A stretch of DNA of 56,600 bases from Candidatus Nomurabacteria bacterium (lineage in GTDB: Bacteria; Patescibacteriota; Minisyncoccia; Phycocordibacterales; UBA9973). Shown here one piece after another: positions 3,785 through 37,323 of the stretch (positions are counted from its first letter, which is position 1; the number at the start of each line of letters is the position of its first letter). The stretch is from assembly GCA_026395895.1 (NCBI GenBank), contig JAPLXV010000003.1, positions 1 to 56,600 on the forward strand. Direction: 5' to 3'. The translations under genes and the position numbers were made by a program. The notes beneath the pieces were generated by a model. That model was not told where the DNA came from, made no database searches, and worked only from the letters and a program-made list of their open reading frames with translations.

Positions 3785-3790
3785 TTGCGG

Positions 3791-6045: not shown

Positions 6046-6271
6046 AAGCCCGCCCGAATTTCGCCAAAACAAAAAGAGGAGCAAGCGGAGGATTCCTCCC
6101 CAGACCCCTCCTCCTCCGCTTGCGACATCCGAATTCGGAAAAAAGGAATCAGCCGAAGTTTTGCGGAATCCTTTCCCCAGAAAATTGTTTCCGCAAAACT
6201 TCGTCCTCATTGTTTCAGATTTCTTCATCGGGATTGCTTTCAAAAAAGGTTCGAATTTTGTACAATGAATA
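6046..6271 (-). repeat. Y' arm, inverted copy of 3791-4016, abutting the attR core at 6272-6277
   Basis: See 3791-4016. Confidence 0.9.
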
Positions 6272-6307
6272 CCGCAAATGGTTTTTTTATGCTAAAATTG
6301 TAGGTAT

Positions 6308-9715: not shown

Positions 9716-11530
9716 ATGCTGATTTCTTATAAATGGTTAAAAAATTATGTTCCAGATTTACCAGAGCCAAATAAATTGGTAGATATTTTTACATTTCATC
9801 TTTGTGAAGTAGAAGGAACAAAAAAAACAGAAGACGATACCATTTTTGATTTAAATATTTTGCCGGATAGAGCACATGACTTGCTATCTTATAGGGGAGT
9901 AGCTAGGGACTTAGCAGGGCTTCTGGATATAGAATATAAAGACATAGAGTATAAAATTGAAGTAGGTGGAACTACAAAGCTTTCTATAAAAGTAGAAAGT
10001 GAAAATTGCCGTAGATATATGGGTAGAATAATAAAAAAGGTAGAGGTTTTACCTTCCCCAGACTGGATGAGGAATTATCTTTTATCGATGGACCAACGCT
10101 CAATAAATAATTTAGTTGACGCTTCTAATATTGTTATGTTCGACAGAGGAAATCCTATTCATGTTTTTGATTTAGATAAAGTAGAGGGTAGTATAATAAT
10201 TCGCCAAGCAAAAGAAGGAGAAAAAATGACTACACTAGATAATAAGGAAGTTAAATTAAGTCCTTCAAATATGGTTATTGCCGACGAAAAAAATATTTTG
10301 GCTCTTGCTGGGGTGAAGGGTGGAAAAATAGCAGAAGTAGATGAAAATACAAAAAATATAATTATTGAAGTTGCCAATTTTGATCCGATAAGCGTGAGAA
10401 AAACTTCCAAAGAAGTAAATATATTTACTGACGCAGTAAAGAGATTTGAAAATGATTTATCTCCTGAAGTAGCAAGTGATGCGATAAATGATATGAGCGC
10501 TTTAGTTTTAGAGATGTGTAGAGGTGCTATCTTAGAAGAGGTAGTGGATGTTTATACAAAAAAACAAGAGAAGATAAAATTATCTTTTGATATAAAAAAG
10601 ATATCTAAAAGATTAGGTTTAGATATTTCTATTACTACAGTTCAAGACATATTAAAACGTTTTGGTGTTCTATATAAAAACACTGGTAACAATTTTGAGA
10701 TTATTGTTCCCGATATGAGGCTTGATCTAAAAACAAAAGAAGATATGTCTGAAGAAATAATAAGAATTTTAGGATACGATAAAATAAAACCAAAAATTCC
10801 CAAAATAAATTTTAAACCACAAGTAAACGAGGTATATGCCAAAATTTCTTGGGCAAGAAATAAACTTTTAAACGAGGGATATAGTGAAGTGATGACTTAT
10901 ACTTTTTGTAATAAAGGAGAAGTGGAAGTGCTTGCTTCTGCTTCAGATAAGAAATTCTTAAGAACAAATTTGAGTGATGGATTAAAAGAAAGTCTAAAAT
11001 TAAATCAACTAAATATGCCGTTGCTCGAGATGGATGAAATAAAAATTTTTGAAATAGGAACTGTTTTTTTGGAAGATAAAGAACAGATGAATGTTTGTTA
11101 TGCAGATAAGAAAAATATTACAGAAGTTTCTTTGGAAACGTTTTGTATGAATTCTCCTCTTGAGGAGTACTCCGACTTAAAGTTGGAGGGAGGTGGAGGT
11201 GTTTTCCACCCCGCCTTCGGCACCCCTCAAGAGGGGAATAAATTCAAACTCTGGTCTCTATTTCCATTTATTGTTCGTGACATTGCAGTTTGGGTTCCGG
11301 AAGAAATAAAAAGTGTAGATGTGGAAAAAGTCATAAAAAATAGTATGGGAGAGCTTGTAATTCGAGGTCCAGAACTCTTTGATCAGTTCAAAAAAGATGG
11401 CAAAATATCCTATGCTTTCAGGCTAGTTTTTCAGTCCTACGATAGGACCCTTACAGATGCTGAAATAAACGAAATTATGACTAAAATAACCAATAAAATC
11501 AAGGAGAAAAATGATTGGCAAGTAAGGTAG
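9716..11530 (+). CDS. pheT: Phenylalanine--tRNA ligase beta subunit (short form, no OB-fold tRNA-binding B2 domain)
   Basis: MLISYKWLKNYV start, ILPDRAHDLLSYRGVARDLA, B3/4 and B5 regions, and a C-terminal FDX-ACB-like domain (RDIAVWVPEE...YAFRLVFQS). Confidence 0.93.
   Translation: MLISYKWLKNYVPDLPEPNKLVDIFTFHLCEVEGTKKTEDDTIFDLNILPDRAHDLLSYRGVARDLAGLLDIEYKDIEYKIEVGGTTKLSIKVESENCRRYMGRIIKKVEVLPSPDWMRNYLLSMDQRSINNLVDASNIVMFDRGNPIHVFDLDKVEGSIIIRQAKEGEKMTTLDNKEVKLSPSNMVIADEKNILALAGVKGGKIAEVDENTKNIIIEVANFDPISVRKTSKEVNIFTDAVKRFENDLSPEVASDAINDMSALVLEMCRGAILEEVVDVYTKKQEKIKLSFDIKKISKRLGLDISITTVQDILKRFGVLYKNTGNNFEIIVPDMRLDLKTKEDMSEEIIRILGYDKIKPKIPKINFKPQVNEVYAKISWARNKLLNEGYSEVMTYTFCNKGEVEVLASASDKKFLRTNLSDGLKESLKLNQLNMPLLEMDEIKIFEIGTVFLEDKEQMNVCYADKKNITEVSLETFCMNSPLEEYSDLKLEGGGGVFHPAFGTPQEGNKFKLWSLFPFIVRDIAVWVPEEIKSVDVEKVIKNSMGELVIRGPELFDQFKKDGKISYAFRLVFQSYDRTLTDAEINEIMTKITNKIKEKNDWQVR
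11192..11242 (+). repeat. GC-rich hairpin module in frame in pheT (shares a 22-mer with trmD)
   Basis: GGTGGA 11192-11197 / TCCACC 11205-11210. CACCCCTCAAGAGGGGAATAAA at 11221-11242 is identical to 24809-24830. It encodes GGGVFHPAFGTPQEGNK. Confidence 0.8.
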
Positions 11531-11552: not shown

Positions 11553-13631
11553 ATGGCTAAAGAAAAAGAAGTAAAAAATGGGCACCATTATGATGCCTCT
11601 GATATCTCTGTTTTAGAAGGACTTGATCCAGTCAGACGTCGTCCAGGAATGTATATCGGAACCACCGGTCCAGAAGGTTTACACCATCTCGTTTGGGAAA
11701 TTTTTGATAACTCGCGCGATGAAGCGATGGGTGGTTTTTGTGATGATATAGAAGTTGTCCTTTTGCCGAACAATCGTATTCGAGTGGCAGACAATGGGCG
11801 AGGTGTGCCTGTTGATATTCACAAAAAAACTAAAGTATCTGCTTTGGAAACTGTTATGACTACTCTGCATGCTGGAGGAAAATTCGGTGGAGAAGGCTAT
11901 AAAGTTTCTGGAGGCTTGCATGGAGTGGGAGCGTCAGTAGTAAATGCGCTCTCAATTTATTGTAAAGCGGAAGTGCATAAAGATGGTGGTAAATATATAC
12001 AAGAATATTCTCAAGGTAAGAAAAAAGCTTCAGTAAAAAAAATTGGGTCTTCAAAATTACATGGAACCATCATTACTTTTGAACCAGATCAAGAAATTTT
12101 TAAAGATATAAAGTTTGATTTAAGTACAATTATAAATCATATTCGTCAGCAAGCTTATTTAGTTAAAAAATTAAAAGTTTCAATAATAGATGCGCGAGGT
12201 TGGGATAATAAAAAAGGACTTGATGACTCTGACGTATTTTATTTTAGAGATCTTGGCATAGAACTTCCCTCCACTTCTTTTTATTTTGAAGGAGGATTGA
12301 TTTCTCTTATAAAATATTACAACAAGTTTCAAAAACCACTTCACGATCATATTTTTTATGTTGAAAAAGAATTGGACGGTGTGATGGTTGAAATAGCTTT
12401 ACAATATGTTGATGACATTGTTGATAGAATAATTCCTTTCGCAAATAATATACATACCGCTGAAGGTGGGACACATGTGACTGGTTTTAAAACTGCTCTT
12501 ACTCGCACCTTGAATACTTATTGTAAAAAGAATGAAATGATGAAAGATTCAGAAGGTGGATTTACCGGCGATGATGTACTGGAAGGTCTTACAGCTGTCA
12601 TTTCGGTGAAGTTAAGAGAGATACAATTTGAAGGTCAAACCAAGGCAAAATTAGGCTCTATGGAGGCCCAAGGAGCTGTTGGGACAATTTTTGGGGAGGC
12701 TTTTGCTGCTTTTCTAGAGGAAAACCCAGATGAAGCAAAAGCTATAATAAATAAGTCTATTTTGGCCTTAAAAGCTCGTAAAGCAGCCAAAGCGGCTAAA
12801 GATTCAGTTCTTCGTAAAGGTGCGCTTGAAGGTATGACCCTGCCTGGAAAATTAGCAGATTGCCAAAGCAAAAGTGCAGAAGATTCAGAATTATTTTTAG
12901 TAGAAGGAGATTCGGCAGGAGGTTCGGCTAAACAAGGTAGAGATAGACGCACTCAAGCCATTCTTCCGCTTCGTGGAAAAATTTTAAATGTTGAACGTGC
13001 TCGCATAGATAAAATGCTTGCTTCTAAAGAAGTAAGAGCTCTGGTTATTGCGATGGGTACTTCTATTGGAGACACTTTTGATCTTTCTAAAATGCGTTAT
13101 CACAAAATAATTATTGCCACAGATGCTGATGTGGACGGTGCGCACATTCGCACCCTTTTGCTGACTCTTTTTTATAGATATTTTAGACAAGTTGTGGACG
13201 CGGGCTATATTTATATTGCTCAACCACCACTTTATAAAATAAAAAGAGGAAAGGAAGTTAGTTATGCATATTCCGATGAAGAGAAAATAAAAATTATCGG
13301 TAAAGAAACAGATGTAAGTGAGATACAAGCGGTTAATGATGAAGAACCCCTACCCGACCTCCCCCTTAGTAAGGGGGAGGAGAAAGGAGGGGGTCTAGAG
13401 TCTAAACAATCTACAAAAATTCACATTCAGCGTTATAAAGGTCTCGGAGAAATGAACCCAGAAGAACTTTGGGAAACAACCATGGACCCAGCTCATCGAG
13501 TATTAAAAAAAGTAAATATAGATGATGCCGAAGAGGCCAACAAAATTTTTGAAATTCTGATGGGTTCCGAAGTTCCTCCTCGAAAATCCTTTATCCAATC
13601 TAATGCTAAATTAGCAGAGATTGATATTTAA
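11553..13631 (+). CDS. gyrB: DNA gyrase subunit B
   Basis: YDASDISVLEGLDPVRRRPGMYIG, GGLHGVGASVVNALS, EGDSAGGSAKQGRDR, PLRGKILNVE, QRYKGLGEMNPEELWETTMDP. Confidence 0.97.
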   Translation: MAKEKEVKNGHHYDASDISVLEGLDPVRRRPGMYIGTTGPEGLHHLVWEIFDNSRDEAMGGFCDDIEVVLLPNNRIRVADNGRGVPVDIHKKTKVSALETVMTTLHAGGKFGGEGYKVSGGLHGVGASVVNALSIYCKAEVHKDGGKYIQEYSQGKKKASVKKIGSSKLHGTIITFEPDQEIFKDIKFDLSTIINHIRQQAYLVKKLKVSIIDARGWDNKKGLDDSDVFYFRDLGIELPSTSFYFEGGLISLIKYYNKFQKPLHDHIFYVEKELDGVMVEIALQYVDDIVDRIIPFANNIHTAEGGTHVTGFKTALTRTLNTYCKKNEMMKDSEGGFTGDDVLEGLTAVISVKLREIQFEGQTKAKLGSMEAQGAVGTIFGEAFAAFLEENPDEAKAIINKSILALKARKAAKAAKDSVLRKGALEGMTLPGKLADCQSKSAEDSELFLVEGDSAGGSAKQGRDRRTQAILPLRGKILNVERARIDKMLASKEVRALVIAMGTSIGDTFDLSKMRYHKIIIATDADVDGAHIRTLLLTLFYRYFRQVVDAGYIYIAQPPLYKIKRGKEVSYAYSDEEKIKIIGKETDVSEIQAVNDEEPLPDLPLSKGEEKGGGLESKQSTKIHIQRYKGLGEMNPEELWETTMDPAHRVLKKVNIDDAEEANKIFEILMGSEVPPRKSFIQSNAKLAEIDI
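13346..13394 (+). repeat. GC-rich palindromic module in frame in gyrB (family 3)
   Basis: 10 bp stem CCTCCCCCTT 13358-13367 / AAGGGGGAGG 13371-13380. Outer pair ACCCC 13346-13350 / GGGGT 13390-13394. It encodes PLPDLPLSKGEEKGGG just upstream of the RYKGLGEMNP motif. Confidence 0.8.
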
Positions 13632-17418: not shown

Positions 17419-19566
17419 ATGCGACTAAAAAACCTTGAAATAAATGGCTTTAAATCATTTTCTAAAAAAACTGTTTTGGAGTTTCAAAATTCGATTGTGG
17501 CTATTGTCGGTCCCAATGGATCTGGTAAATCAAATGTAGTGGAAGCTTTGCGTTTTGTTTTAGGCGAACAGTCAATGAAATCAATGCGTGGGTCATTGGG
17601 AGCTGATTTGATTTTTAAAGGGTCAAAAAACTTACCCAAAAGTTCCCGAGCAACTGCTACTATATATTTTAATAACTCTGATAAAATTTTTAAACTTTCT
17701 AATGAAACAGGAGAAAATATAAATTTAAATTATGATGTTATTTCAATTTCTCGTGAAGTTTTTTCTGATGGCTTAAATAAATATATTTTGAATGGTTCAG
17801 AAGTAAGATTAAAAGATATTAATAATCTTTTATCCTCAGTTAATATTGGTTCTTCTGGGCACCATATTATTTCGCAAGGTGAGGCGGACAGAATTCTAAA
17901 TGCTTCTCCTAGGGATAGAAGGGAAATGGTAGAAGATGCTCTTGGACTTAAAATTTACCAATATAAAATAAAAGAAGCGCAACGCAAATTAGAAAGAACT
18001 ACCGACAATATGAAAGAGGTTTCACTTTTGCGTCGAGAAAATGCTCCGCATTTAAATTTTCTAAAAAAACAAGTAGATAAATTTGAAAAAGCAAAAGAAA
18101 TGCAGGTAACATTGTTATCTCTTTATAAAGAATACTTAAAGAAAGAAAGTGTTTATTTAGAAAAAGAACAATCAAATTTACTTTCAGAAAAAAATAAAAT
18201 TTCTTTAGAGTTGAAAAACGTAAAAGAGAAAATCTCTGATACAGATGAAACTGAAAAGAGAGGAGAAAGTGAAAAAGAAAAAGAATTAAAAGTATTTGAA
18301 AAAAAGATAAGTGAAATTCATGCAGTCAAAAATGAAATAGAACGCAAATTGGGAAGAATTGAAGGAATTCTTGAATCAAAAGGAAATAAAGTTAAAATTT
18401 CTGGTAAATGTCCTTTATGTGGCAGTGAAATTAAGGAAAAAGAAGAAGGTCAGATAGAAAAGAGACAAAATGATGAAAAAGAATTGGAAGAATTAAAAAA
18501 TTCTCAAGCTGGTATTCTAGCTGAAATGGAGAATTTAAAAAATGAGGAGGGAAATATTTTTGAAAAAATAGAAATATTGAAAAAAGAAATTAATCAAGAG
18601 AATGAAGCTCTGCATATAAAAGAAAAGGAGAAATTTAATTTTAGAGTTAGGCACCAAGAGTTATCCTCTTCTTTAGATCTAATTTCTGTCAAAGAACAAA
18701 ATCTTAAAAGAGAGATAGAATCTTTCGAAAATGAAATAAAAGAAGGTGAAGCTTTAATTGGAAGTGAAATTTTGTCTTATAAAAATTTTGAGGTGAATGA
18801 AATAATTGATAGAAATGCGCAAGAAGAATCAAGACGAAAAATTGAACGTATAAAAATGAAGTTAGAAGACGTTGGTGTGGGTGGAGGATCAGAAGTAATG
18901 AAAGAATATGAGGAAGTTTTTCAAAGAGATAATTTTTTAGCCAAAGAGATGGAAGATTTAGCTGTAAGTATAGAGTCTCTTCGAAAATTGATGGCAGATT
19001 TGAAAGAAAAAATAGATATAGAATTTAAAGAGGGTATTAAGAAAATAAATGTAGAGTTTGATAAATTCTTTTCTTTGATGTTTGGCGGAGGAACTGGCTA
19101 TCTTGCAATTGTTGTTGAAAGTAAAAAGAAGAAAGAAGCCCCGACGCTCGAAGAGGTCGGGGTCCCGACTCCTGATGAAGATCAGGACGTCGGGAAAGAA
19201 ATCGTTCCTGAACAAGGCATTGAAATTAATGTTTCGCTTCCACATAAAAAAGTGAAAGAACTGAATGCACTTTCTGGAGGAGAAAGGTCTCTTACCTCTA
19301 TTGCTCTTCTTTTTGCTATGTCCCAAGTAAATCCACCGCCATTTTTGGTACTTGATGAAACAGATGCTGCGCTAGACGAAGCAAATTCTCGCAAATATGG
19401 GGATATGCTAGAAAAACTCTCTCATCACTCTCAGCTTATAGTCGTTACTCATAATAGGGAAACAATGTCTCGCGCTGGCATTTTATATGGCGTCACTATA
19501 GGTTCCGATGGTGCCTCCAAACTTCTCTCTGTCAAACTGGACGAAGCCGCCGCAATTGCAAAGTAA
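17419..19566 (+). CDS. smc: SMC-family ATPase, short form (715 aa) with no recognisable hinge and a central CPLC motif
   Basis: SMC-type heads: GFKSFSKKTVLEF...GPNGSGKSNVVEALRFVLGEQS at the N-terminus and LSGGERSLTSIALLFAM...FLVLDETDAALDEAN...VVTHNRETM at the C-terminus. The middle is all coiled coil, with GKCPLCGSE at aa 331-334. Confidence 0.85.
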   Translation: MRLKNLEINGFKSFSKKTVLEFQNSIVAIVGPNGSGKSNVVEALRFVLGEQSMKSMRGSLGADLIFKGSKNLPKSSRATATIYFNNSDKIFKLSNETGENINLNYDVISISREVFSDGLNKYILNGSEVRLKDINNLLSSVNIGSSGHHIISQGEADRILNASPRDRREMVEDALGLKIYQYKIKEAQRKLERTTDNMKEVSLLRRENAPHLNFLKKQVDKFEKAKEMQVTLLSLYKEYLKKESVYLEKEQSNLLSEKNKISLELKNVKEKISDTDETEKRGESEKEKELKVFEKKISEIHAVKNEIERKLGRIEGILESKGNKVKISGKCPLCGSEIKEKEEGQIEKRQNDEKELEELKNSQAGILAEMENLKNEEGNIFEKIEILKKEINQENEALHIKEKEKFNFRVRHQELSSSLDLISVKEQNLKREIESFENEIKEGEALIGSEILSYKNFEVNEIIDRNAQEESRRKIERIKMKLEDVGVGGGSEVMKEYEEVFQRDNFLAKEMEDLAVSIESLRKLMADLKEKIDIEFKEGIKKINVEFDKFFSLMFGGGTGYLAIVVESKKKKEAPTLEEVGVPTPDEDQDVGKEIVPEQGIEINVSLPHKKVKELNALSGGERSLTSIALLFAMSQVNPPPFLVLDETDAALDEANSRKYGDMLEKLSHHSQLIVVTHNRETMSRAGILYGVTIGSDGASKLLSVKLDEAAAIAK
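19139..19195 (+). repeat. 57 nt double-hairpin module in frame in smc (family 1, TCCCGAC/GTCGGGA)
   Basis: CCCCGAC-N10-GTCGGGG, then TCCCGAC-[TCCTGAT GAAG ATCAGGA]-C-GTCGGGA. It encodes APTLEEVGVPTPDEDQDVGK. Confidence 0.85.
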
Positions 19567-19568
19567 AT

Positions 19569-21485
19569 TTATTTGAATTTGATTTTTTCTTCCTTGCCGA
19601 TTATTAATTGATTTGGCTGGAAGAATTTGTTTAGTTTAACGGTGTCTTTTTTTATGGACATACTTCCATCTCTATTTAATTTAATTTCCAAAAGCATACC
19701 CTGCATTGTATTTACGGAAAAACCCTGGTCAAAAATAAAGTTGCCTAGCGAATAAGCGATAAAACCCACGCACGAATTTTGAGTGCAATCTTTTGGGCTA
19801 TAAACTTCTGTATCTTCTACCACGTGTGGATGAGTGCCAATTATAATTTTAGCCCCGTCATCTATTGCCTTGTGCGCTAAATATTCTTGTCTGGAATTAT
19901 GTTTTATTTTATATTCGTCTCCAAAATGAAATGACACGACTAAATAATCAACTTGCTTAGATGCATTTTGCACTATTTCATCAAAACGCGGATTGCTTGC
20001 AAATAATAAACCAGCTTTGTCTGCTCCTGCCTCCATCCAATCTGGCCCTACATCTGAAAATCCCAAATATCCTATTTTCATTCCATATTTTTCTATAATA
20101 ACAGGCATTTCTGCTTCGTTTGCATTCATTCCTCCACCAATATATGAAATTTCATTTTCTTTTAATCTAGTTAAAGTATCAACATAAGCATTTTGTCCCC
20201 AATCTCCCATATGATTATTAGCAACCGAAACCACAGAAAATCCTGCGCCTTTTAATGCAGGAATAGTGGAAGGGTCCATTCTAAATGAATATAAATTATG
20301 CATATCTTTTCCTGCATCAGAGGCTGGACCTTCCAAATTTGCAAAAGTTATATCAGATCTTTTTAAGATTCCTAATTTTTCAAAAAGGGCTGAGTAATCT
20401 CCTTTGAAATTTTTGTTTACAGAATTTTTAACTCCACGATCAAGCATTATATCTCCACCGAACAAAAGAGTGACGAAATCTTGATCATATACTACAGGTA
20501 AATCAGTTCTTTCTTTGACCCAAGCAGTATTAGCGTCAGCTTCTCCGCCATAATATATATTTTTATTTAAATATTTTAAAATATTTTCTACGTCCTTAAA
20601 ACGATCTTTACTTTGTAAAAGAGTGATAGCAATATGGCGTGTTCCAGCTTCTGAAAGGGGAACTGAAAAAGTGGAAATAACTGTTTGTAAAGCGACATCT
20701 GTATAACCACTTTTACCTCCCAAATAGCCATTTTCAAGCAGGAATTGATTATTACTGAACCAATTGTGTGTTTTATTGGAATAGCTTCGTTTGGTTGTGA
20801 TTTGTAGTAAATTTGGGTCTTTTTGATTTAAATATCCTGCTAATTTAAACATATCAAAAACAGTTGATTGATTTTTAGGAGAAAGTCCGCTTGGGTCGTC
20901 AAAACTAGTCTTAGATAATTCTAATTTGAGAGCCTCCTGGTTCATTTTTTTTAGAAAAATATCTCGGCCAAAAAATTCAGCTATTACTTCGGCAGCATCA
21001 TTGCTTGATTCTAAAAGTAGGGGATAAATGAGGTCTGTAATTTTTATTTTTTCTCCTATTTTCAAATTACCATTCTTTCCAGAGGTGGCTGAGGCTTTTT
21101 TAGAAACTTTAGCAATATCATCTGAGCTTTTTGATTCTGTGGCCACAAGCGCAGTCATAAGTTTAGAAACAGAAGCAAGTGAATATTGTTCATCTTGATT
21201 TTTTGTCAAAATAATTTCTCCCGTATCTAAATCACCAACTAAAAAAGCCTTGGCTGATACTTTTGGTTTCAAATTTAAATCTTTTACGAAATAAGAAAAT
21301 CCAGATGTTAATTCTGGTGCTGTCAGAGATTCCATGGCTGTTGCGGTATTTTCATTTGGTTCTATTATTTTTTTATATTCAGCATCTTTAAAAAAGAGAG
21401 AGACAAAAAAAATACCAACCATAGTAGCAGAGATTGTCCAAAATCCGAGTTTAATTTTTGGACCTAGGGTAGATTTCATATTCAT
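19569..21485 (-). CDS. Fusion protein: N-terminal D-alanyl-D-alanine carboxypeptidase (S11 PBP) and C-terminal CapA-type metallophosphatase domain
   Basis: N-terminal TM, then SVSKLMT (SxxK), ESSNDAA (SxN) and KSGYT (KTG). The C-terminus has GGDIMLDRGV, ANLEGP, VANNHMGDWG, SFHFGDEY and GTHPHV. Confidence 0.85.
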   Translation of the reverse strand: MNMKSTLGPKIKLGFWTISATMVGIFFVSLFFKDAEYKKIIEPNENTATAMESLTAPELTSGFSYFVKDLNLKPKVSAKAFLVGDLDTGEIILTKNQDEQYSLASVSKLMTALVATESKSSDDIAKVSKKASATSGKNGNLKIGEKIKITDLIYPLLLESSNDAAEVIAEFFGRDIFLKKMNQEALKLELSKTSFDDPSGLSPKNQSTVFDMFKLAGYLNQKDPNLLQITTKRSYSNKTHNWFSNNQFLLENGYLGGKSGYTDVALQTVISTFSVPLSEAGTRHIAITLLQSKDRFKDVENILKYLNKNIYYGGEADANTAWVKERTDLPVVYDQDFVTLLFGGDIMLDRGVKNSVNKNFKGDYSALFEKLGILKRSDITFANLEGPASDAGKDMHNLYSFRMDPSTIPALKGAGFSVVSVANNHMGDWGQNAYVDTLTRLKENEISYIGGGMNANEAEMPVIIEKYGMKIGYLGFSDVGPDWMEAGADKAGLLFASNPRFDEIVQNASKQVDYLVVSFHFGDEYKIKHNSRQEYLAHKAIDDGAKIIIGTHPHVVEDTEVYSPKDCTQNSCVGFIAYSLGNFIFDQGFSVNTMQGMLLEIKLNRDGSMSIKKDTVKLNKFFQPNQLIIGKEEKIKFK

Positions 21486-23611
21486 TATGTTGTTAGCGCA
21501 TAATCTATCGTTTTTCTTTCTAAATCAACACTTTTTACTTTTATCTTTACTCGGTCGCCTAGTCTGTATTTTTTCCCCGACGCTTTCGGTCGGGATCCCG
21601 GCCCCAAAGGGCGTCGGGACTTTTTCCCTTGTCCGACTAGTTCCAATTTTTTTTCATTAAAAATATAAAAATTATCTTCCATATCTCGTACTCGTACCAG
21701 ACCCTCGCATTTTGTTTCTACTTCTTCTACATAAATACCCCATTCTGTTATACCACTAATAATACCTTCAAATGTTTTTGAAATACGAGAAGACATATAT
21801 TCAACTTGTTTGTATTTTATAGAGGCTCGTTCAGCATCTGAAGCAAATTTTTCTCTTTCTGATGCTTTTCTGGAAATTTCTTCATAGATACTTAATTTCT
21901 CTTTGCCCACTTTTAATCCTTTTAGGTAATCTGTCAAAAGTCTGTGGACTACTACATCTGGGTAGCGTCTGATGGGGGAAGTAAAATGAGCATAGTATTC
22001 AAAAGCCAAACCATAGTGGCCGACATTTTTTGTGGAATAAATTGCTTTGGCCATAGAGCGTATAATTGCGCGATTGACTGTATTTTCTTCATTTTTTCCC
22101 TCAAGACTCTTTAGAAGATTATTTAATTCATAATTTGGAATAACCCCATCAATTAAAGATATTTTATATCCCAAACTCCTTAAAAAGAATGCCAAATCAG
22201 TCATTTTTTCTTTACTAGGATTATCATGGATACGATAGACAAATACTCCTCCATCTTTCTTGGTGCCTTTGGAGATAGTTTCAGCCACTTTTTTATTTGC
22301 TAAAAGCATAAATTCTTCAATTAATTTGTTTGAATCACCTCGTACTTTTTTTATTACTTTTAACGGTGTTCCATTTTTATCTAAAACAAATTTTACTTCT
22401 TCTTGTTCGAGCGAGATAGCTCCATTTGCAAATCTTTCTTTGTTCAATTTTTTAGCCAAATTATTTAAAATAAAAAGTTCTTTGTGCAGTGGCGCTGAAT
22501 TTTCTTTTATAGATTTTTCCGCTTCTTCGTAAGTAAATCTTTTTTGAGAATGTATCACCGTACGTCCGTACCATTCTTTTTTTACTTGCGCGTTTTTGTC
22601 TAGGACAAAAACTGCGCTCATGGTCAGTCTGTCTTTATTGGGAACTAGAGAACAGAGGTCGTTAGAAAGTACTTCCGGAAGCATTGGGATAGTTCTATCT
22701 ACTAAATAAACAGAAGTGCCTCTTTTTTTTGCTTCCTTATCAATTTCGCTTCCAATTTTTACATAATGAGAAACGTCGGCTATATGAATTCCGATTTCAT
22801 ATACCTCACCCCCTAACCCCCTCTCCTTGAAACCCCCTTGCTCCCCCTTATCAAGGGGAAACCATTTGCCTCCCCTGACAAGGGGAGGTCTGGAGGGGTT
22901 AAGGAGAGGGGGGAGAATACGGAATGAAATGGCATCATCAAAATCTTTTGCATCATCTGGGTCAATAGTAAAAGTGAGAGTTTTTCTAAAATCGCGTCGC
23001 CCATTATAATCTTCATTTTTAATACCTAAACTTTTTATTTTTTCCGCTTCCTCCTCAACTTTTTGAGGCAGTTCACTATCAAACCCTTTTTCTATAGCGA
23101 TAGCATGCATTTCCGCATTATTGTCTCCGGGTTTTCCTAAAACTTTTATTATTTTTCCTTCTGGTGCTTTTAGTCCATCTTTCCAAAAAATTATTTCTGT
23201 ATAGACTTTTTGTCCTGCCTTTGCGCCATTTAGCATTTTTTCGGGTATTAGAATATCGGTATACATTTTTGTATCATCGGGTTTTAGAAAATATATGCCG
23301 TCTTCTTTCTCTAAGACTCCCGAAAAGCCCATCTTTGCACGAGAGATTATTTTTAATACTTCGGCTGTCAAACGCCCTTTTCCTTTTGGATGCAAAGTAA
23401 TTTCAACCATATCACCGTGCAGAGCTGTATTTAAGTGCCTAAAATCAATCTCAGGGTCCTTCCCGACGTTCTGATTTCTATCAGAAGTCGGGATCCCGAC
23501 CCCATTGGGCGTCGGGACCTCATTCAATATTCTTACATATCCAATACCCTTGCTTGTTATAGATATAATACCCTGTACTGTCTTTTGAATTTTTTTTGTT
23601 TTTCCTTTCAC
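21485..23611 (-). CDS. rnr: Ribonuclease R (start probably GVG-context GTG at 23611; track ORF extends to 23722)
   Basis: Cold-shock/OB N-terminus, an RNB domain (DPDDAKDFDDA, GIHIADVSHYV, VYLVDRTIPMLP) and a C-terminal S1 domain. The 23612-23722 extension overlaps the rpsP start region on the opposite strand. Confidence 0.9.
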   Translation of the reverse strand: MKGKTKKIQKTVQGIISITSKGIGYVRILNEVPTPNGVGIPTSDRNQNVGKDPEIDFRHLNTALHGDMVEITLHPKGKGRLTAEVLKIISRAKMGFSGVLEKEDGIYFLKPDDTKMYTDILIPEKMLNGAKAGQKVYTEIIFWKDGLKAPEGKIIKVLGKPGDNNAEMHAIAIEKGFDSELPQKVEEEAEKIKSLGIKNEDYNGRRDFRKTLTFTIDPDDAKDFDDAISFRILPPLLNPSRPPLVRGGKWFPLDKGEQGGFKERGLGGEVYEIGIHIADVSHYVKIGSEIDKEAKKRGTSVYLVDRTIPMLPEVLSNDLCSLVPNKDRLTMSAVFVLDKNAQVKKEWYGRTVIHSQKRFTYEEAEKSIKENSAPLHKELFILNNLAKKLNKERFANGAISLEQEEVKFVLDKNGTPLKVIKKVRGDSNKLIEEFMLLANKKVAETISKGTKKDGGVFVYRIHDNPSKEKMTDLAFFLRSLGYKISLIDGVIPNYELNNLLKSLEGKNEENTVNRAIIRSMAKAIYSTKNVGHYGLAFEYYAHFTSPIRRYPDVVVHRLLTDYLKGLKVGKEKLSIYEEISRKASEREKFASDAERASIKYKQVEYMSSRISKTFEGIISGITEWGIYVEEVETKCEGLVRVRDMEDNFYIFNEKKLELVGQGKKSRRPLGPGSRPKASGKKYRLGDRVKIKVKSVDLERKTIDYALTT
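21575..21619 (-). repeat. 45 nt double-hairpin module in frame near the rnr C-terminus (family 1, read in a different frame)
   Basis: CCCGAC-GCTTTCG-GTCGGG, then TCCCGGC-CCCAAAGGGC-GTCGGGA. It encodes SRRPLGPGSRPKASG. Confidence 0.8.
22807..22914 (-). repeat. ~108 nt nested multi-hairpin GC-rich module in frame in rnr, just upstream of the HIADVS catalytic motif (family 3)
   Basis: Outer 12 bp stem CCCCCTCTCCTT 22817-22828 / AAGGAGAGGGGG 22901-22912. Inner hairpins CCCCTT-ATC-AAGGGG (22844-22858) and CCTCCCCT-GACA-AGGGGAGG (22869-22888). It encodes PPLLNPSRPPLVRGGKWFPLDKGEQGGFKERGLGGE. Confidence 0.85.
23461..23517 (-). repeat. 57 nt double-hairpin module in frame in the rnr N-terminal region (family 1)
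   Basis: TCCCGAC-[GTTCTGAT TTCT ATCAGAA]-GTCGGGA, then TCCCGAC-CCCATTGGGC-GTCGGGA. Same length, orientation and frame as the smc copy. It encodes VPTPNGVGIPTSDRNQNVGK. Confidence 0.85.
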
Positions 23612-23673
23612 TCTTTTAATATAACATAAATTTTTGTATTTGCCTTTTTGGGGAATTATGTTAGACTCTAAAG

Positions 23674-23982
23674 ATGTTAAAAATAAGATTACAAAGAATT
23701 GGAAGGAAAAATGACCCATCATTTCGGGCGGTTTTGACTGATTCTAAAAACAGCACTAAAAGCGGAAAATTTTTAGAAATAGTTGGTACTTATAATCCAA
23801 AGGCGGGCGAGACTAGTTTTAAGACTGAAAGAATACAATACTGGGTTTCAAAAGGGGCACAACTTTCCGATACCATGCATAATTTTATGGTGCATCAAAA
23901 AGTGATAGAAGGGAAGAAGAGAAACGTATTGCCGAAGAAAAAACCGACAGTTAAAAGAAAGGAGTTGAAAGCTAAAAAATAA
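23674..23982 (+). CDS. rpsP: 30S ribosomal protein S16
   Basis: MLKIRLQRIGRKNDPSFRAVLTDS...GTYNP...W...GAQLSDT. Confidence 0.93.
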   Translation: MLKIRLQRIGRKNDPSFRAVLTDSKNSTKSGKFLEIVGTYNPKAGETSFKTERIQYWVSKGAQLSDTMHNFMVHQKVIEGKKRNVLPKKKPTVKRKELKAKK

Positions 23983-24044
23983 TCGTATATAATTATTACA
24001 GCAGTGCAGTTAATCATTTAAGGTCGTAACACTGCCAAACATTT

Positions 24045-24075
24045 CAGCCAGTGGGCTGATCCGCCTACTGGCGGA
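24045..24075 (+). repeat. Intergenic tandem-hairpin module (family 2, TCCGCC/GGCGGA)
   Basis: CAGCC-AGTG-GGCTG, A, TCCGCC-TACT-GGCGGA. Same architecture as the 30 nt modules in rpoB and the HMA permease gene. Confidence 0.7.
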
Positions 24076-24107
24076 AAAAATTATTAATAAAATATTTCTG
24101 AACACAT

Positions 24108-27776: not shown

Positions 27777-30700
27777 CAAACAGAAAAACGTCCAAAGAAG
27801 TATTTTGCCAGATACAAGGATCCATTAATAGAATTTCCTAATTTAATAGAAGCTCAAACTAAATCTTACAAGTGGCTTGTGGAAGAGGGTTTGAAGGAAG
27901 TTTTTAAGGAATTTTCTCCAATCATCGATTACTCTGGAAAAAAGTTTGAACTTGAGTTCACCTCTTTTTCTTTGGGTGAGCCTAATTGCGATGAGAATGA
28001 TGCGAAAATAAATAAACTCTCATATCAAGGGCTTTTGAAGACGCGAGTAAAATTAAAAAATAAAATTTTAGGAACCGAAAAAGAGCAAGAAATTTTTATG
28101 TCTGAAATTCCACTTATGACTGCACACGGAACTTTTATTATCAATGGAGTAGAGCGTGTGATTGTGCCACAGCTTGCAAGAAGTTTTGGAGTCTTTTTTA
28201 CTGAATCTGAAAATAAAGGCAAAAGATATTTTGGGGCAAAAATTATTCCAGCTCGTGGAGTTTGGATTGAAATAGAATCAGAATCTGATGGGGCAATTTA
28301 TATAAGAATAGACAAAAAAAGAAAATTTCCTGCTACCGCTTTGCTTCGAGTAATGGGATATGAAACGAATGAGATGATGCTCAAAGCATTTTCCGCCAAA
28401 GGCGGACAAGCCTCTGGCTTGGAAAACATATGCAAAGAAGCCATTGAAGCTTGTTTGGCAAAAGATGTAGCCAAAACATTAAATGATGCATATATTGAAA
28501 TATATAAACGCTTAAGAGACGGAGACATGGCTACTCCCGAGAATGCTAAAGAATTTATTAATTCTTTATTTACCCCTGAAAGATATGATCTTTCTCCAGT
28601 TGGACGATACCGATTTAATAAACGTTTTGAAAAATCTCTGGAAGAAGACGAACTTGCTCGCCGAACTATTTCTAAAGAAGATTTAATGACTGTCATTGCA
28701 AATATTATTGTTTTAAACAATACTCCTGGAGCTAAATCCGACGATATTGATCACTTGGGCCAAAGACGTGTTCGATTTGTTGGAGAAATGCTTCAGCAAA
28801 AAGTGCGTACTGGTATGATGCAAATAAAGAGAAACATTCAAGACAGAATGTCTATTATTGATGTTGATACTGCCATGCCCATCCATATTATCAATCAACG
28901 TCCACTCCAAGCTCGCATTAAAGAATTTTTTACTACCAACCAACTTTCGCAATTTATGTCGCAGGAAAATGTGCTGGCAGAGATAGAACACATTCGTTTG
29001 CTTTCTGCCCTTGGTCCTGGGGGACTTACTCGTGAACGCGCAGGTCTAGAAGTTCGAGACGTGCACCCTTCTCACTATGGACGTGTTTGTCCTATTCATA
29101 CTCCAGAAGGTCCAAACATTGGACTTATTTTACATCTTTCTACTTATGCAAAAATAAATGATTTTGGAATTATTGAAACTCCATATATAAAAGTTAAAAA
29201 TGGAAAAATCACCGGAGAAGTTCAATATTTAAATGCACTGGAAGAAGAAAAATACAATATTGCCCATGCTGGAATTCTTTATGATGAGCATGGAAAAATA
29301 ACAGAAGAAAAAGTAGCAGCCAGAATAAAAACTAATCCAGGAATGATAAATCGCGATCAAGTTGATTTTATTGATGTGGCTGCTAATCAGGGTTTTTCTC
29401 TAGCAACTTCTATGATTCCATTTTTGGAACATAATGACGCTAACCGTTCGCTCATGGGAAGTAACATGCAAAAACAAGCAGTGCCTTGTGTTCTTCCTGA
29501 AGCACCATTGGTGGCCACCGGAATTGAAGCGATGGCTTCTCGCTACTCTGGTAGAATGGTTATTGCTTTAGAAGATGGGGTTGTTTCTTATTTAGATGCA
29601 AAGAAAATAGTAGTCAAAGGAAAATCAGAAAAAACTTATACGCTCGTTAATTTTTTGAGGAATAATAACTTTTCTGCCTTTCATCAACGTCCTTCGGTAG
29701 ATGTTGGCCAAAAAATAAAAAAAGGAGACGTTTTAGCTGATACAACCAGCACAGTAGATGGACAAATTTCAGTTGGACAAAATATCTTTGTGGCTTTCTT
29801 GTCTTGGTCTGGATCAAACTATGAAGATGCTATAGTTATTTCTGAACGTCTTATAAAAAAGAGTAAATTTACCAGTGTTTATGTTGAAGAGTTCGTTTGC
29901 ACAGTTCGTGATACGAAACTTGGACCTGAAATTACTACTCGAGATATTCCAAACGTTGGAGAATTAAAACTAAAAGATTTGGATGAGGATGGTATCGTTC
30001 GTATTGGAGCTGAAGTGAGAGAGAATGATATTTTAATAGGTAAAATTACTCCCAAAGGTGAAACAGAACTTACTCCAGAAGAAAGATTACTTCGTTCAAT
30101 TTTTGCCGAAAAAGCACGTGATGTGAAAGATACATCACTTCGCATGGAACACGGCAAACGTGGACGTATTATTGGTGTTAAAATTTTCTCTCGCGATTTA
30201 GGTCATACACTTGAAGCAGGAATTATTAAAAAGATTGTGATTGAAGTTGCTCAAATTAGAAATATTTCAGTCGGGGATAAACTTTCTGGACGACACGGAA
30301 ACAAAGGAGTTATTTCAAGAATTCTTTCAGAAGAAGATATGCCTTATACAGCAGATGGTACACCAGTTGATATTGTTCTTTCACCTTTAGGTGTTCCTTC
30401 TCGTATGAATCTAGGACAAGTTTTAGAAATGCATCTTGGTATGGCAGCCAATACTCTAGGATATCAAGCCATCGTTCCTCCATTTTTAGGAGCCAGTCAT
30501 GAAGAAATAAAAGAGGAATTAAAGAAAGCTGGATTTCCTGAAAATGGTAAATTAAAACTTTTTGACGGACGCACAGGAGAAGCTTTTGATCAAGATATTG
30601 CTGTTGGTTATATGTATATGTTGAAGCTTCATCATATGGTAGAAGATAAAATTCATATGCGTTCTATTGGACCTTACTCTCTTATTACTCAACAGCCATT

Positions 30701-35532: not shown

Positions 35533-37323
35533 ATGAATTCACCAGTCGAACAAATTAAGGAGAGGCTTTCGATTGAAGAGATAGTCTCTTCCTACATAAA
35601 ACTAGAAAAAGCGGGCGCAAACTTTAAAGCCAAGTGTCCTTTTCACAATGAAAAGACACCTTCCTTTTTTGTCTCTCCAGACCGTGGCAGTTATTATTGT
35701 TTTGGTTGTGGAGCTAAGGGTGATATTTTCACTTTTATAGAAGAATTTGAAGGGCTTGATTTTAAGGGTGCATTAAAAATCTTGGCCGAACGTGCAGGAG
35801 TTTCGCTTGCGCAATACAGTAGAGAAAAAGAAGGAGAAAAGGAAAAATTATACAGAGCGATGGAAGAATCAACCAAATTTTTTGAAAAAAATTTAGAAGA
35901 GAACAAAAAAGCGCTAGAATATCTGAAGGCAAGAGGGTTAGAAGATAAAACTATTAAAGATTTTAGAATTGGATTTGTAAAAAATGATTGGCGTTTGCTT
36001 TACACTTATCTTAGAGATAAAAATTTTACAGATATAGAAATAGAAAAAGCTGGATTAATTAAATACCCCCACCCGGCCTCCCCCGAAGGAGGAGGAGGAG
36101 AATTACCCTCTCCTTTGGGGAGGGTTGGGAGGGGTTATGATAGATTTCGTGGGCGAATTATGTTTCCGATTTCAGATTCGAGTGGTCGCATCATCGCTTT
36201 TTCCGGCAGAATTTTTGAGGATGACCCTTCGACAAGCTCAGGGCAGGCGGTTAATCAGGCCAAATATTTAAACAGTCCAGATACCCCAATTTTCAGCAAA
36301 TCAGCCGTTTTATATGGATTAGACAAAGCTAAAGAATCAATCCGCAAAAATAATTTTTCTATTCTAGTTGAAGGACAAATGGATCTAGTTTTGTCTCACC
36401 AAGCAGGGTTTAGAAATACTGTAGCCACTTCTGGGACAGCTCTTTCAGATTCTACAGTTTCCAAAGAAAATGTTGTATCAAATTTAGGGCTATTACGTCG
36501 TCTTTCTGGGAATATTGTTTTGGCTTTTGATGCAGATCGCGCAGGATTTAATGCCTCTTCACGCGCAGGTAAAATTGCTCTTTCTTTTGGGATGGATGTA
36601 AAAGTAGTTTCTATGCCAGAGGGTATTGACCCAGCCGATTTAATTTCTAAAAGCGGAACGGACGCCTGGCGTACGGCTATTCGTAATTCAAAACATATCA
36701 TAGAGTTTTTATTGGATAAAGTTTTGGCTAGTCATAAAGATGATATGCGCAAAGCTGGGAGAGAAATAAGAGAAAAAGTATTGCCTTATGTTGATGCTGT
36801 TGAAAGTTCAATCGAGAAATCACATTTTATTAAGCTTATTAGTAATAAATCGGGGATAGCTGAAAATGCACTTCTAGAAGATTTAAAGAAAGTTCAATCC
36901 GAATTAAAGTCTGAAACGGAAGAAACAAAAATTGCTACAGAAAATGTGGAGAAAAGAATGAGAAAAGACCCGATTGAACGTAGACTTTTAGGTATAGCTT
37001 TTTGGCAAGAAAGTATTCAAAAGAAAACAATAGATCCAGAATTAATCTTTCAAAAATTAGATAAAGTGAAAGAAATTTATAAAAATATAAAAGAAGACTT
37101 AATTTATGAAGCGGAAGAATTTTATTTGGATAACGAAAATTTACAAAAAGATGTAAAGGAAATGCTATTGAATATAGAAGAAGAATATTTGAATGAAGAT
37201 TTGAATGAAAAAATGGTAGAATTAAAAGATTTTAAAGATAGAAAAGAAGAAGTAGAAATTTTAAAAAAGATAGACGAGATACATAAAAGAAAAGAAAAAA
37301 TTAAAAATAGAAGCGGTCGTTAA
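35533..37323 (+). CDS. dnaG: DNA primase DnaG
   Basis: Zinc-binding [14 protein letters not shown]....[11 protein letters not shown], a TOPRIM domain ([22 protein letters not shown]) and [11 protein letters not shown] at 35533 is preferred over the track start. Confidence 0.93.
36065..36135 (+). repeat. GC-rich palindromic module in frame in dnaG (family 3)
   Basis: CCTCC-CCCGAA-GGAGG (36077-36092), CCCTCTCC-TTT-GGGGAGGG (36106-36124), and outer ACCCC/GGGGT. It encodes [23 protein letters not shown]. Confidence 0.8.
36223..36248 (+). repeat. Second GC-rich module in frame in dnaG (family 4, GACCCTTCGA...CTCAGGGCA)
   Basis: GACCCTTCGACAAGCTCAGGGCAGGC compares with GACCCTTCGATTTCTCTCAGGGCAAGC at 51584-51610. 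It encodes DPSTSSGQA. Confidence 0.65.

Follow-up and report, generated by a model that had tools for sequence, protein, structure and literature searches.

The rnr gene for RNase R (positions 21485 to 23722, minus strand; Pfam domains RNB, CSD2 and S1) in the window that we analysed, a 56.6-kb stretch of DNA from a Candidatus Nomurabacteria genome, carries in its S1 domain a palindromic module that keeps the reading frame, raising the question of whether this module serves the protein, serves the mRNA or is a piece of DNA that propagates by itself. Module C (21575 to 21619, minus strand) is a 45-nt double hairpin in which a 43-nt core, from CCCGAC to GTCGGG, has one nucleotide on each side. 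Its sense codons, from 21619 down to 21575, are TCC CGA CGC CCT TTG GGG CCG GGA TCC CGA CCG AAA GCG TCG GGG and give the peptide SRRPLGPGSRPKASG. A preliminary description of this DNA had reported such a two-hairpin module with CCCGAC/GTCGGG stems at these positions, in the frame tcc-cga-c, and both sequence and translation confirm it. Relative to B. subtilis RNase R (8cdu), module C is an insertion of 15 amino acids, modelled by AlphaFold as an unstructured loop linking strands (pLDDT of the block ~54-55). We assign a probability of roughly 0.8 to the reading that module C is a copy of a DNA-level mobile element and that its peptide is a by-product.

Two 57-nt double hairpins of the same family are found in the window. 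Module B (23461 to 23517, minus strand) occupies the N-terminus of rnr, where the codon phase G|TC CCG ACG yields VPTPNGVGIPTSDRNQNVG (pLDDT <50 in the AlphaFold model), and module A (19139 to 19195, plus strand) a variable loop of an SMC_N/AAA ATPase protein of 715 aa (17419 to 19566, plus strand; Pfam), where G|CC CCG ACG yields APTLEEVGVPTPDEDQDVG. Both read (A/V)PT...VG, in agreement with the earlier statement that the copies in smc and at the rnr N-terminus are framed one base apart from module C. A central rnr insert (22808 to 22915, minus strand; fold z = -5.2, pLDDT <50) belongs to other families: its outer hairpin, CCCCCTCTCCTT..AAGGAGAGGGGG, encodes ILPPLLN|KERGLGG and holds in its loop a second palindromic module (22829-22897, minus strand) encoding PSRPPLVRGGKWFPLDKGEQGGF, while orthologues have the outer module without the nested one (peptide ILPPLLNKERGLGGEV). 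The count of three modules from two families first given for RNase R must consequently be raised to four modules from three families, the central insert being a nested pair.

Modules A, B and C each fold into two adjoining hairpins (z = -7.3, -5.7 and -2.6, respectively), and the family as a whole shares this anatomy. The first hairpin, N-CCCGAC-G-variable stem-loop-GTCGGG-R, bears a bulged G after its first stem word and is followed directly by the second, T-CCCGAC-variable stem-loop-C-GTCGGG-N', with a bulged C before its last, the core measuring 34-64 nt. These mirrored bulges are present as G in 111 and as C in 109 of 125 elements. The element has the terminal inverted repeats CCCGACG...CGTCGGG.

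Indications that these modules move come from the closest relatives of the window, which are 92-94% identical to it in rnr outside the insertion sites and differ in module presence; indels of at least 7 aa that set the window apart from them are nearly all module-like. The closest rnr orthologues, in L121 and L122, have no module C. L122, whose rnr is 92% identical to that of the window, carries a copy differing from module C by 2 nt at another rnr site and in another frame, as VPTPFGAGIPTASVG. The corresponding target site in the window is empty (21881 to 21931, minus strand; ..GGC AAA G^AG AAA.., KVGK^EKL), and each of the two genomes is thus empty at the site where the other carries its copy. 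Excising exactly 45 or 57 nt regenerates the empty-site sequence at L122 site 4 and at the rnr B site. At the latter, the empty alleles of L121, L122 and L029 read GAG G^AG GAC, which makes module B an exact 57-nt insertion with no target duplication. In the window the smc loop holds a copy with a 55-nt core, read in the APT frame, versus one with a 43-nt core in the SRRP frame in L066, and gyrB of another Nomurabacteria genome (L007) contains a copy matching module A in 54 of 55 nt, with its frame unchanged. From this patchy presence across compared sequences we infer mobility. Two possible traces of earlier events were discarded. Close to empty sites there are native half-sites (GTT CCC GAC for B in L121, GTC GGG for C in L066), which lack conservation among relatives and appear coincidental, and a GCCGGG stem mismatch, considered as a lineage marker, occurs also in the distant orthologue P0046 (peptide GPG) and is undiagnostic.

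A pattern scan of public sequences detected at least 120 loci, and at least 120 were likewise present in a second public collection. Among the matches listed, the label is Patescibacteria for 94 of 120 loci and Omnitrophota for 8 of 120, and a search for a phage vector gave 0 matches among 2.9 million viral contigs. About one third of the copies among the matches listed lie within long ORFs, in unrelated housekeeping genes (CarB, UvrA, PolA, EF-G, P-type ATPase, MnmA, trigger factor, FBA-II, ExoIII, GyrB), and 45 copies in open frames <100 aa make up the intergenic class. A 5' AG or (A/T)AG flank precedes 28 of 44 intergenic copies and 17 of 41 genic ones, the latter being partly confounded with Lys/Glu codon usage, against a background of 5.5% (matches listed).

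The preliminary description had proposed tabulating the frames in use, with stop codons as a possible reason for excluded ones. In a set of 128 family copies, drawn from the matches listed (120 public loci) and the window, the genic copies among the matches listed divide into 7 in the PD, 13 in the SR and 21 in the PT frame. Stops do not account for this usage, as 70-90% of frames are open across the family: module C has no stop in any of the six frames, ruling out exclusion in its case, and modules A and B have one closed sense frame each, in which the long loop contains a TGA or TAG. Length is what distinguishes genic copies. Among the matches listed, the core length is 1 mod 3 in 31 of 41 genic versus 19 of 45 intergenic copies (Fisher p = 0.002), the remaining 10 of 41 genic copies having other lengths. 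Translation of the modules is inferred from this length filter, which implies that genic copies are translated and not removed.

Many intergenic copies split a sequence that partially copies the 5' end of a tRNA and lies directly upstream of the intact tRNA, and in at least 27 loci the order is hairpin, GIY-YIG ORF (~88 aa), tRNA. The linked ORFs match PF01541 (E = 1e-12 to 1e-16), and in all six contexts chosen via the nuclease protein alone a hairpin lies upstream and a tRNA downstream of the ORF. These proteins are minimal stand-alone domains nearest to UPF0213 / prokaryotic Slx1-like proteins, a GIY-YIG group that figures in PMC1564403. A genic solo copy (L034) and a homologue of the nuclease (P0124) are present on one complete Saccharibacteria chromosome (OZ246412.1). 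In the 56.6 kb of the window, in L121 and in L122 no GIY-YIG homologue was detected, and none of the window copies is near a tRNA; an ORF within the element, as in GIY-YIG homing elements, is seen in related loci only and not in the window. We rejected the idea of an interrupted, intron-like tRNA gene: in-silico excision with 0, 1 or 2 nt of padding followed by ARAGORN restored a tRNA in 1 of 128 cases (L113, where the copy concerned comes second in a tandem pair) and in 2 of 116 cases of a further set, all others being 5' tRNA fragments only. Hairpin and GIY-YIG gene together at a tRNA are a candidate autonomous element.

Could the hairpins instead be a MITE or a REP/RAYT-type repeat, moved by a DDE or HUH (Y1) transposase, with the GIY-YIG linkage a separate matter of using the same tRNA sites? 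The terminal inverted repeats fit MITEs, and the bulged hairpins are similar to those that single-strand transposases (IS200/IS605, REP) are said to recognise. The lack of target duplication is as for the HUH type, and a GTAG stands 5' of the hairpin in tRNA-linked copies, as is said of REPs. However, this GTAG belongs to the tRNA itself, being its U8-A9-G10 region, and DDE-type MITEs make target duplications, of which none was found at the rnr B site, at L122 site 4 or at the rnr C site. Furthermore, no transposase was seen beside any copy, whereas the GIY-YIG gene described above is the sole one to show tight and recurrent linkage. We therefore regard movement by such a transposase as unlikely. 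A point against our own reading is that, to our knowledge, GIY-YIG enzymes do not act as transposases.

Propagation of the DNA itself also has to be weighed against a functional mRNA structure, for instance a processing or stability signal for RNase III or RNase R that regulates the host gene. The hairpins are stable, and the inner stems covary, being 82-99% paired versus 46-79% in shuffles, with all four Watson-Crick pair types. Judged from the sequences, this covariation is a sign that the hairpins are maintained, and a functional RNA or DNA structure would look alike. Where a copy is linked to a tRNA, its position would correspond to the pre-tRNA leader, in L006 downstream of a TATAAT-like box. 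Against regulation of the host gene, the two-fold symmetry gives the same structure from either strand, an architecture that favours a DNA-level over an RNA-level unit. Orientation with respect to the host gene shows no bias (13 of 30 G-centre copies in the sense orientation), so that the orientation shared by the three window copies, which all lie the same way relative to their host genes, is not a rule of the family. Hosts and positions within them are unrelated, module presence varies even between genomes as close as the relatives compared above, and Rfam 15 at the gathering score, applied to the window and 11 loci, returned tRNAs only, with no family covering the element. An RNA function of this kind is improbable in our view.

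Selection at the protein level, with a flexible Gly/Ser/Pro/Arg linker of benefit to RNase R and an incidental palindrome, would be consistent with the in-frame location of the module in a loop at the S1 surface, and also with the distribution of module C among 120 RNase R orthologues (BLASTP identity 67-83% over the whole protein, 72-91% in the alignment). C-family copies recur at the rnr C site in 13 of the 120 proteins, which belong to 11 scattered lineages. Distant lineages carry them at nearly one position and in one frame, and most occupied alleles have a Gly codon just upstream. This shared position, frame and codon could stem from an ancient insertion that was lost repeatedly, or from homologous recombination spreading the module, and not from repeated insertion. 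A search for a recombination tract at the site gave as best local matches close relatives without a C-family copy there, the flanking 56 residues being highly conserved. One close relative in this flank comparison has an unrelated module at the site. A benefit to RNase R is difficult to reconcile with the other alleles, as about 103 of the 120 orthologues, including the nearest relatives of the window, have an empty site (KKKKK/KKKKR) and 3 have another family there, an unrelated module at this site reading NLPAGRQGK. Moreover, one DNA family is read in three frames and has intergenic copies too, and the changes by which orthologous copies differ are all non-synonymous or stem-breaking. Taken as the reason for the presence of the module, a beneficial linker thus appears very improbable.

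A chance resemblance between GC-rich stretches in an AT-rich genome has a negligible probability, being refuted by the loci in two public collections and by shuffle tests, in which the complete double-hairpin pattern is found 3 times in the window versus 0.00 expected (100 shuffles), CCCGAC 17 times versus 5.3 expected (11 of the 17 within modules A, B and C), module C aligns locally with module B over 31 nt with 28 identical at a score of 47, where the best of 2000 dinucleotide shuffles reached 26, and the score of 25 between C and A was equalled by 1 of 2000 shuffles. The family resemblance of module C, which the preliminary description had made dependent on such a comparison, therefore stands, and its proposal that the DNA or RNA element is what propagates, with peptides as by-products, is supported by the use of three frames, the intergenic copies and the copies in L122 and smc.

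In the mobile-element reading, a GC-rich, two-fold symmetric double hairpin would have dispersed among Patescibacteria (CPR) and Omnitrophota, both inside single genomes and from one genome to another, inserting exactly, without target-site duplication and mostly after ...AG or ...AGG. A genic copy would survive only if its length is divisible by three, its landing frame free of stops and the receiving loop tolerant of 12-20 added Gly/Ser/Pro/Arg/Thr/Val residues. The peptide, be it SRRP..., VPT... or PD..., would then be a by-product of the landing position relative to the codon phase. The three window copies would have been acquired after the split from the closest relatives. The full unit, as we envisage it, would combine the double hairpin as its cis part with the ~88-aa stand-alone GIY-YIG (UPF0213 / Slx1-like) nuclease gene and sit in the D-arm region of a tRNA along with a duplicated tRNA 5' end. 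Solo hairpins, those in rnr and smc included, would be non-autonomous and rely on this nuclease or on host recombination; dependence on the nuclease, taken as a step by itself, is a tentative proposal that falls a little short of even odds. With similar caution, somewhat below an even chance, we suggest that the family may be an undescribed kind of bacterial mobile element, composed of a CCCGAC hairpin and a ~88-aa GIY-YIG protein, targeting the tRNA D-arm and leaving ORF-less derivatives in essential genes. The target would be the universally conserved D-arm at G10|Y11, the tRNA would survive thanks to the 5'-end duplicate that the unit carries or creates, and the nuclease ORF would borrow its stop codon (TAG) from U8-A9-G10 of the tRNA. 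Derivatives without the ORF would be scattered in tRNA leaders and in coding sequences of CPR essential genes, where they would be a main source of protein length variation. Such a partnership would resemble that of REP and RAYT, with a GIY-YIG nuclease as the enzyme.

Several known systems share some of these traits. Rickettsia palindromic elements (RPE) were reportedly described by Ogata et al. in 2000. Like the CPR family, they are dispersed palindromes of a small AT-rich genome, situated in frame in many unrelated housekeeping genes (here 41 genic copies among the matches listed, with the length bias given above) as well as between genes, at tolerant sites and with peptides regarded as by-products (see also the reviews PMC2229807 and PMC10969869). 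In size and hosts the CPR family does not correspond to RPE-1 to RPE-8, which are here set apart by description: it measures 37-66 nt instead of roughly 100-150 nt, consists of two adjoining hairpins with a fixed 6-7-nt stem word, belongs to another phylum and spans phylum-level groups, whereas RPE are confined to one genus, and shows linkage with tRNA 5' fragments and with a GIY-YIG gene. REP/REPIN sequences with their RAYT share the short GC-rich imperfect hairpins, the many non-autonomous copies around one small hairpin-flanked nuclease gene and the absence of target duplication. REPs are extragenic and have an HUH Y1 transposase, whereas CPR copies are often intragenic, and the gene flanked is GIY-YIG rather than Y1_Tnp, placed between a tRNA fragment and a tRNA. 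Mobile GC-rich elements are also known from organelles, as the double-hairpin elements of Allomyces mitochondria and the GC clusters of yeast. We know of no description of tRNA D-arm targeting or 5'-end duplication for them. These organellar elements are described as palindromes or double hairpins, rich in GC within AT-rich genomes, situated in intergenic as well as coding or rRNA sequence and sometimes beside mobile endonuclease ORFs (for yeast GC clusters, PMC4478555), but their sequences are different. Phage T4 SegB, a GIY-YIG nuclease encoded among tRNA genes, recognises a conserved tRNA-gene motif (PMC2330249) and is similar in that the element spreads along with flanking sequence; it differs in its extra DNA-binding domains, T-psi-C target and phage-borne state, and it is not known to have an associated hairpin repeat.

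A full-text literature search found no description of such elements in CPR. CPR proteins are known for odd insertions, and the genomes of these bacteria have been considered poor in mobile DNA. Our findings suggest that many length differences between CPR orthologues are selfish insertions filtered by frame and loop tolerance, and not adaptations. This has consequences for how genes are annotated, for alignments and phylogenies built from CPR marker proteins and for structure prediction. Furthermore, the linkage of hairpin and GIY-YIG gene at tRNA genes offers a testable candidate for how in-frame palindromic elements move, a long-standing question, and points to a possible biological role of the UPF0213 / prokaryotic Slx1-like proteins, which are widespread.

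We confirmed the observation on module C, i.e. that one motif family is read in two frames, in the window sequence and its translations. Module C (21575-21619) lies in the RNase R gene rnr (21485-23722, minus strand; Pfam domains RNB, CSD2 and S1), on whose sense strand it runs, from 21619 to 21575, TCC CGA CGC CCT TTG GGG CCG GGA TCC CGA CCG AAA GCG TCG GGG and encodes SRRPLGPGSRPKASG. Two longer copies, module B at the rnr N-terminus (23461-23517, VPTPNGVGIPTSDRNQNVG) and module A within the gene for an SMC_N protein (19139-19195, APTLEEVGVPTPDEDQDVG), are read with the frame shifted by one base (x|YC CCG AC), and two adjacent hairpins are the predicted fold of all three. The pattern CCCGAC-N4-24-GTCGGG-R-TCCCGRC-N4-24-GTCGGG is matched in the window, with its GC content of about 34%, only by A, B and C, where 0.00 matches are expected. 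Chance similarity of C to the family, a possibility raised in the preliminary description, did not hold up, as the alignment of C with B (28 of 31 bases identical) scores 47 and the best of 2000 dinucleotide shuffles 26. That description had counted three modules from two families in rnr; the number is four, from three families. The central rnr insert (22808-22915) is a nested pair, with a palindromic module (22829-22897) within the loop of an outer hairpin that stands alone in many orthologues (ILPPLLNKERGLGGEV).

Module C belongs to a DNA-level family of wide distribution. Scanning public genomes, one per species, with the same pattern gave at least 120 loci; by record label, the 120 loci listed comprise 94 Patescibacteria, 8 Omnitrophota (one being the complete Candidatus Velamenicoccus archaeovorus genome), 7 unclassified and 11 other records, and no copy was found in the viral contigs scanned for the double-hairpin pattern. 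The loci listed and the window together provided 128 copies, 41 of them genic (in ORFs of at least 200 aa) and 45 intergenic (in open stretches of less than 100 aa). The host genes are unrelated housekeeping genes (CarB, UvrA, PolA, EF-G, P-type ATPase, MnmA, trigger factor, FBA-II, ExoIII and GyrB), and all three frames occur among the genic copies: CCC GAC (PD) in 7, xCC CGA C (SR) in 13 and xxC CCG AC (PT) in 21. It had been suggested that stop codons might exclude some frames, but the element stems are free of stop codons whatever the frame, all six frames of module C are open, modules A and B each have one sense frame closed by a TGA or TAG of the long loop, and 70-90% of frames are open across the family copies. 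Thus, frame usage is set by landing position and not by stop codons. A core length of 1 mod 3, which makes the whole element a multiple of three, was seen in 31 of 41 genic versus 19 of 45 intergenic copies (Fisher p = 0.002; genic copies against an expectation of 1/3, binomial p = 4e-8), and this length filter implies, at the level of sequence, that the genic copies would be translated in whichever frame the insertion gave. The use of all three frames, the intergenic copies and the unrelated hosts support the earlier proposal that the DNA or RNA element is the propagating unit and the peptides are by-products.

Among 125 distinct elements, 111 have a G after the first CCCGAC and 109 a C before the last GTCGGG, which are mirrored bulges, and the variable inner stems are 82-99% paired, versus 46-79% in shuffles, with all four Watson-Crick pair types occurring. 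Together, these features define a two-fold symmetric palindrome in which a 6-7-mer occurs four times in alternating orientation. The double-hairpin structure is kept while the inner sequence drifts, and the two-fold symmetry is more readily reconciled with recognition as DNA than with an RNA function tied to one strand.

The insertion of module C is exact. Removing in silico precisely N + core + N', the core being the CCCGAC..GTCGGG stretch, gives back the empty-site sequence, which is GAG G^AG GAC at site B, AAG G^AG AAA at the rnr site of L122 (a contig of a close relative), AAG^AAA at site C and in smc of the scan locus L066, and AAG^AAG at site A; no target-site duplication was found at these compared sites. 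AG lies directly 5' of the element in 17 of 41 genic and 28 of 44 intergenic copies (background 5.5%), and the genic excess may be partly due to Lys and Glu codons. Flank phase yields three peptide classes, K-S-R from AAG|TCC CGA, E-V-P-T from GAG G|TC CCG AC and S-P-D from AG|Y CCC GAC. In comparison with Bacillus subtilis RNase R (8cdu), module C adds 15 residues between two strands of the S1 domain, and the central rnr modules map to the stretch that separates the two aligned blocks. An AlphaFold model of the window RNase R (mean pLDDT 77) places modules B and M, the central insert, below 50, and module C as coil between strands 657-661 and 681-683, in a block of pLDDT about 54-55.

Module C has been gained or lost over a short evolutionary scale. 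An alignment of 120 rnr orthologues has insertion hot spots at three sites, and the C site is empty (KKKKK or KKKKR) in about 103, occupied by the CCCGAC family, in the SR frame every time, in 13 proteins (11 scattered lineages) and by an unrelated module, NLPAGRQGK, in 3. Occupancy is scattered over the rnr tree, and all nearest relatives of the window (89-94% identity outside the insertion sites) have an empty C site; common descent or recombination of the occupied alleles is possible. In 9 of the 13 carriers a Gly codon directly follows the conserved Gln (QGKK|SRRP), a position that is always Lys in empty alleles, and the Lys run beside the element is 0-3 residues long. The clearest case of gain or loss is L122, whose rnr is 92% identical to that of the window: modules A, B and C are absent, and its rnr carries TCCCGACGCCCTTCGGGGCCGGGATCCCGACCGCAAGCGTCGGGA, 2 nt off module C, at a separate site (KVGK^EKL), read as VPTPFGAGIPTASVG, the corresponding window site (21881-21931) being empty. 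Similarly, one smc loop holds a copy with a 43-nt core in the SRRP frame in L066, a copy with a 55-nt core in the APT frame in the window (module A), and neither in L122 and L121, a second close relative; the gyrB copy of the scan locus L007 shares 54 of 55 nt with module A. Indels of at least 7 aa in genes shared by the window with L121 or L122 are almost all modules, of the CCCGAC or other palindromic families. In L121, the closest relative of the window, the 3' end of a nusB-NUDIX gene (7845-7878) also holds a degenerate copy of 34 nt, CCCGACCTTTGTCGGGATTCCGACTTTGGTCGGA, and the window has none at the matching position.

The genome is peppered with palindromic inserts. Modules of other GC-rich families, of the CCTCCCC/GGGGAGG type and of the CCGCC..GGCGG type with a GGATCC centre, lie in the window at 689-783, 11184-11240, 13346-13402, 36059-36136, 51234-51291, 24043-24077 and 28392-28423, their hosts being LigA, PheT, GyrB, DnaG, a DsbD-like protein and, probably, rpoB. 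In L007, the GyrB copy of the CCCGAC family occupies the region matching the window GyrB insert, between the Toprim and C-terminal domains. The window also contains a large serine recombinase ORF (1961-3649, minus strand; Resolvase, Recombinase and Zn-ribbon domains), which adjoins and, by the ORF call, overlaps tRNA-Ser(GGA) (2054-2141). Beside it, a 232-nt inverted repeat pair (3785-4016 and 6046-6277, 98% complementary) encloses about 2 kb with three ORFs without a Pfam match, and this region may represent an integrated element or a segment that inverts.

Over half of the intergenic copies are flanked as ...GTAG | element | CTCAGTTGG..., which is tRNA D-arm sequence. Interrupted tRNA genes were rejected as an explanation, since the flanks are partial copies of a tRNA 5' part. 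Seventeen of the 128 copies lie 13-154 nt 5' of an intact tRNA gene in equal orientation, and each splits, at G10|Y11, an incomplete repeat of the 5' part of that very tRNA (ten isoacceptor types); for many intergenic copies across the genome and metagenome loci (L001-L120 and L123-L242) the tRNA duplicate is found 6-197 nt upstream of the intact tRNA, again in equal orientation (e.g. L006 187-370, L065 4658-4850, L022, L033 and L077). As a control, the tRNA 5' 10-mer was repeated upstream in 11 of 21 cases with an element versus 0 of 59 without (p = 3e-8). A metagenome scan for the tRNA-linked configuration gave at least 120 loci, and among the 116 listed matches with at least 150 nt downstream, an intact tRNA starts downstream in 69 (median 24 nt), the ten flanking bases being exactly tRNA positions 1-10 in 30 of these. 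In V. archaeovorus (L006), positions -12 to +22 of tRNA-Thr form an exact tandem duplication of 35 nt; the element lies in the first of the two copies, 3' of a TATAAT-like box. L113 (3184-3400) has a tandem tRNA-Gly(GCC) pair, the first intact and the second full length with its D loop split by the element (TTCAG^...^TTGG), an arrangement that is a possible intermediate of the tRNA-fragment architecture. In L050 (about 1455-1560), the tRNA-Thr(GGT) 3' of the element apparently has a long insert past the anticodon region (..CTCCATGGTGGTTCGTAACTGCCCCACGCGCGAGC..), which may be an intron.

The family is physically coupled not only to tRNA 5' fragments but also to a minimal GIY-YIG nuclease gene. 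At 27 further loci the element is directly followed by an ORF of 83-96 aa and then a tRNA; this ORF encodes a GIY-YIG catalytic domain (PF01541, E = 1e-12 to 1e-16), with the stand-alone UPF0213 proteins 1zg2 and 1ywl as nearest matches and SLX1 as a weak one. It typically extends into the tRNA, whose U8-A9-G10, read as TAG, is its stop (...ATT CCG CAG TAG in tRNA-Asn, ...AAG CCG GAG TAG in tRNA-Met), so that the last 3-4 codons vary with the tRNA. Stand-alone GIY-YIG ORFs of 83-99 aa between a hairpin-bearing tRNA fragment and an intact tRNA occur in L123, L135, L137, L140, L080, L037, L243-L252 and others. In an independent test, 509 homologues were found by protein sequence and six were picked on contig size alone; all six have a double hairpin (CCCGAC family or a close stem variant) about 10 nt or less 5' of the gene, after ...TAG, and an intact tRNA 3' of it. 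Many homologues are on very short contigs, as a repeated element would give. Stem variants (GGCCGAC..GTCGGCC, TTCCGAC..GTCGGAA) accompany some of the genes (L245/L246, L252, L250 and L244), which hints that stem word and nuclease clade may co-vary. A solo copy within a gene and a nuclease gene of this type occur together on one complete Saccharibacteria chromosome; no GIY-YIG homologue was found in the window, L121 or L122.

We propose that the hairpin and nuclease unit would be the autonomous element, that the ORF-less copies in tRNA leaders would be its deletion derivatives and that the solo copies in coding sequences would be non-autonomous derivatives. Whenever part of a tandem duplicate is deleted, what is left is still a tandem repeat, only shorter, and L006 and L113 fit this. 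Movement might involve nuclease cleavage at AG^ sites followed by homing-type repair or, alternatively, structure-specific cutting of an extruded cruciform.

Like Rickettsia palindromic elements, the copies are in-frame selfish palindromes, but the CCCGAC family is shorter, built differently and found in other phyla. REP/RAYT systems also pair hairpins with one nuclease gene, but the present nuclease belongs to the GIY-YIG type, and there are intragenic copies. In form, the family resembles mitochondrial double-hairpin elements and GC clusters. Its nuclease part is reminiscent of T4 SegB, described as a homing endonuclease of the GIY-YIG type with a conserved tRNA-gene motif as its recognition target (PMC2330249), and the protein is of the minimal prokaryotic Slx1-like type, as outlined in PMC1564403. 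A keyword search of full texts on CPR bacteria, which could miss a description, found no account of such an element. Altogether, the analysis supports the interpretation of a DNA-level element with peptides as by-products. Module C itself is probably in-frame palindromic mobile DNA, a known kind, and a mobile element made of hairpins plus a GIY-YIG nuclease, for which we see a credible lead, would be new.
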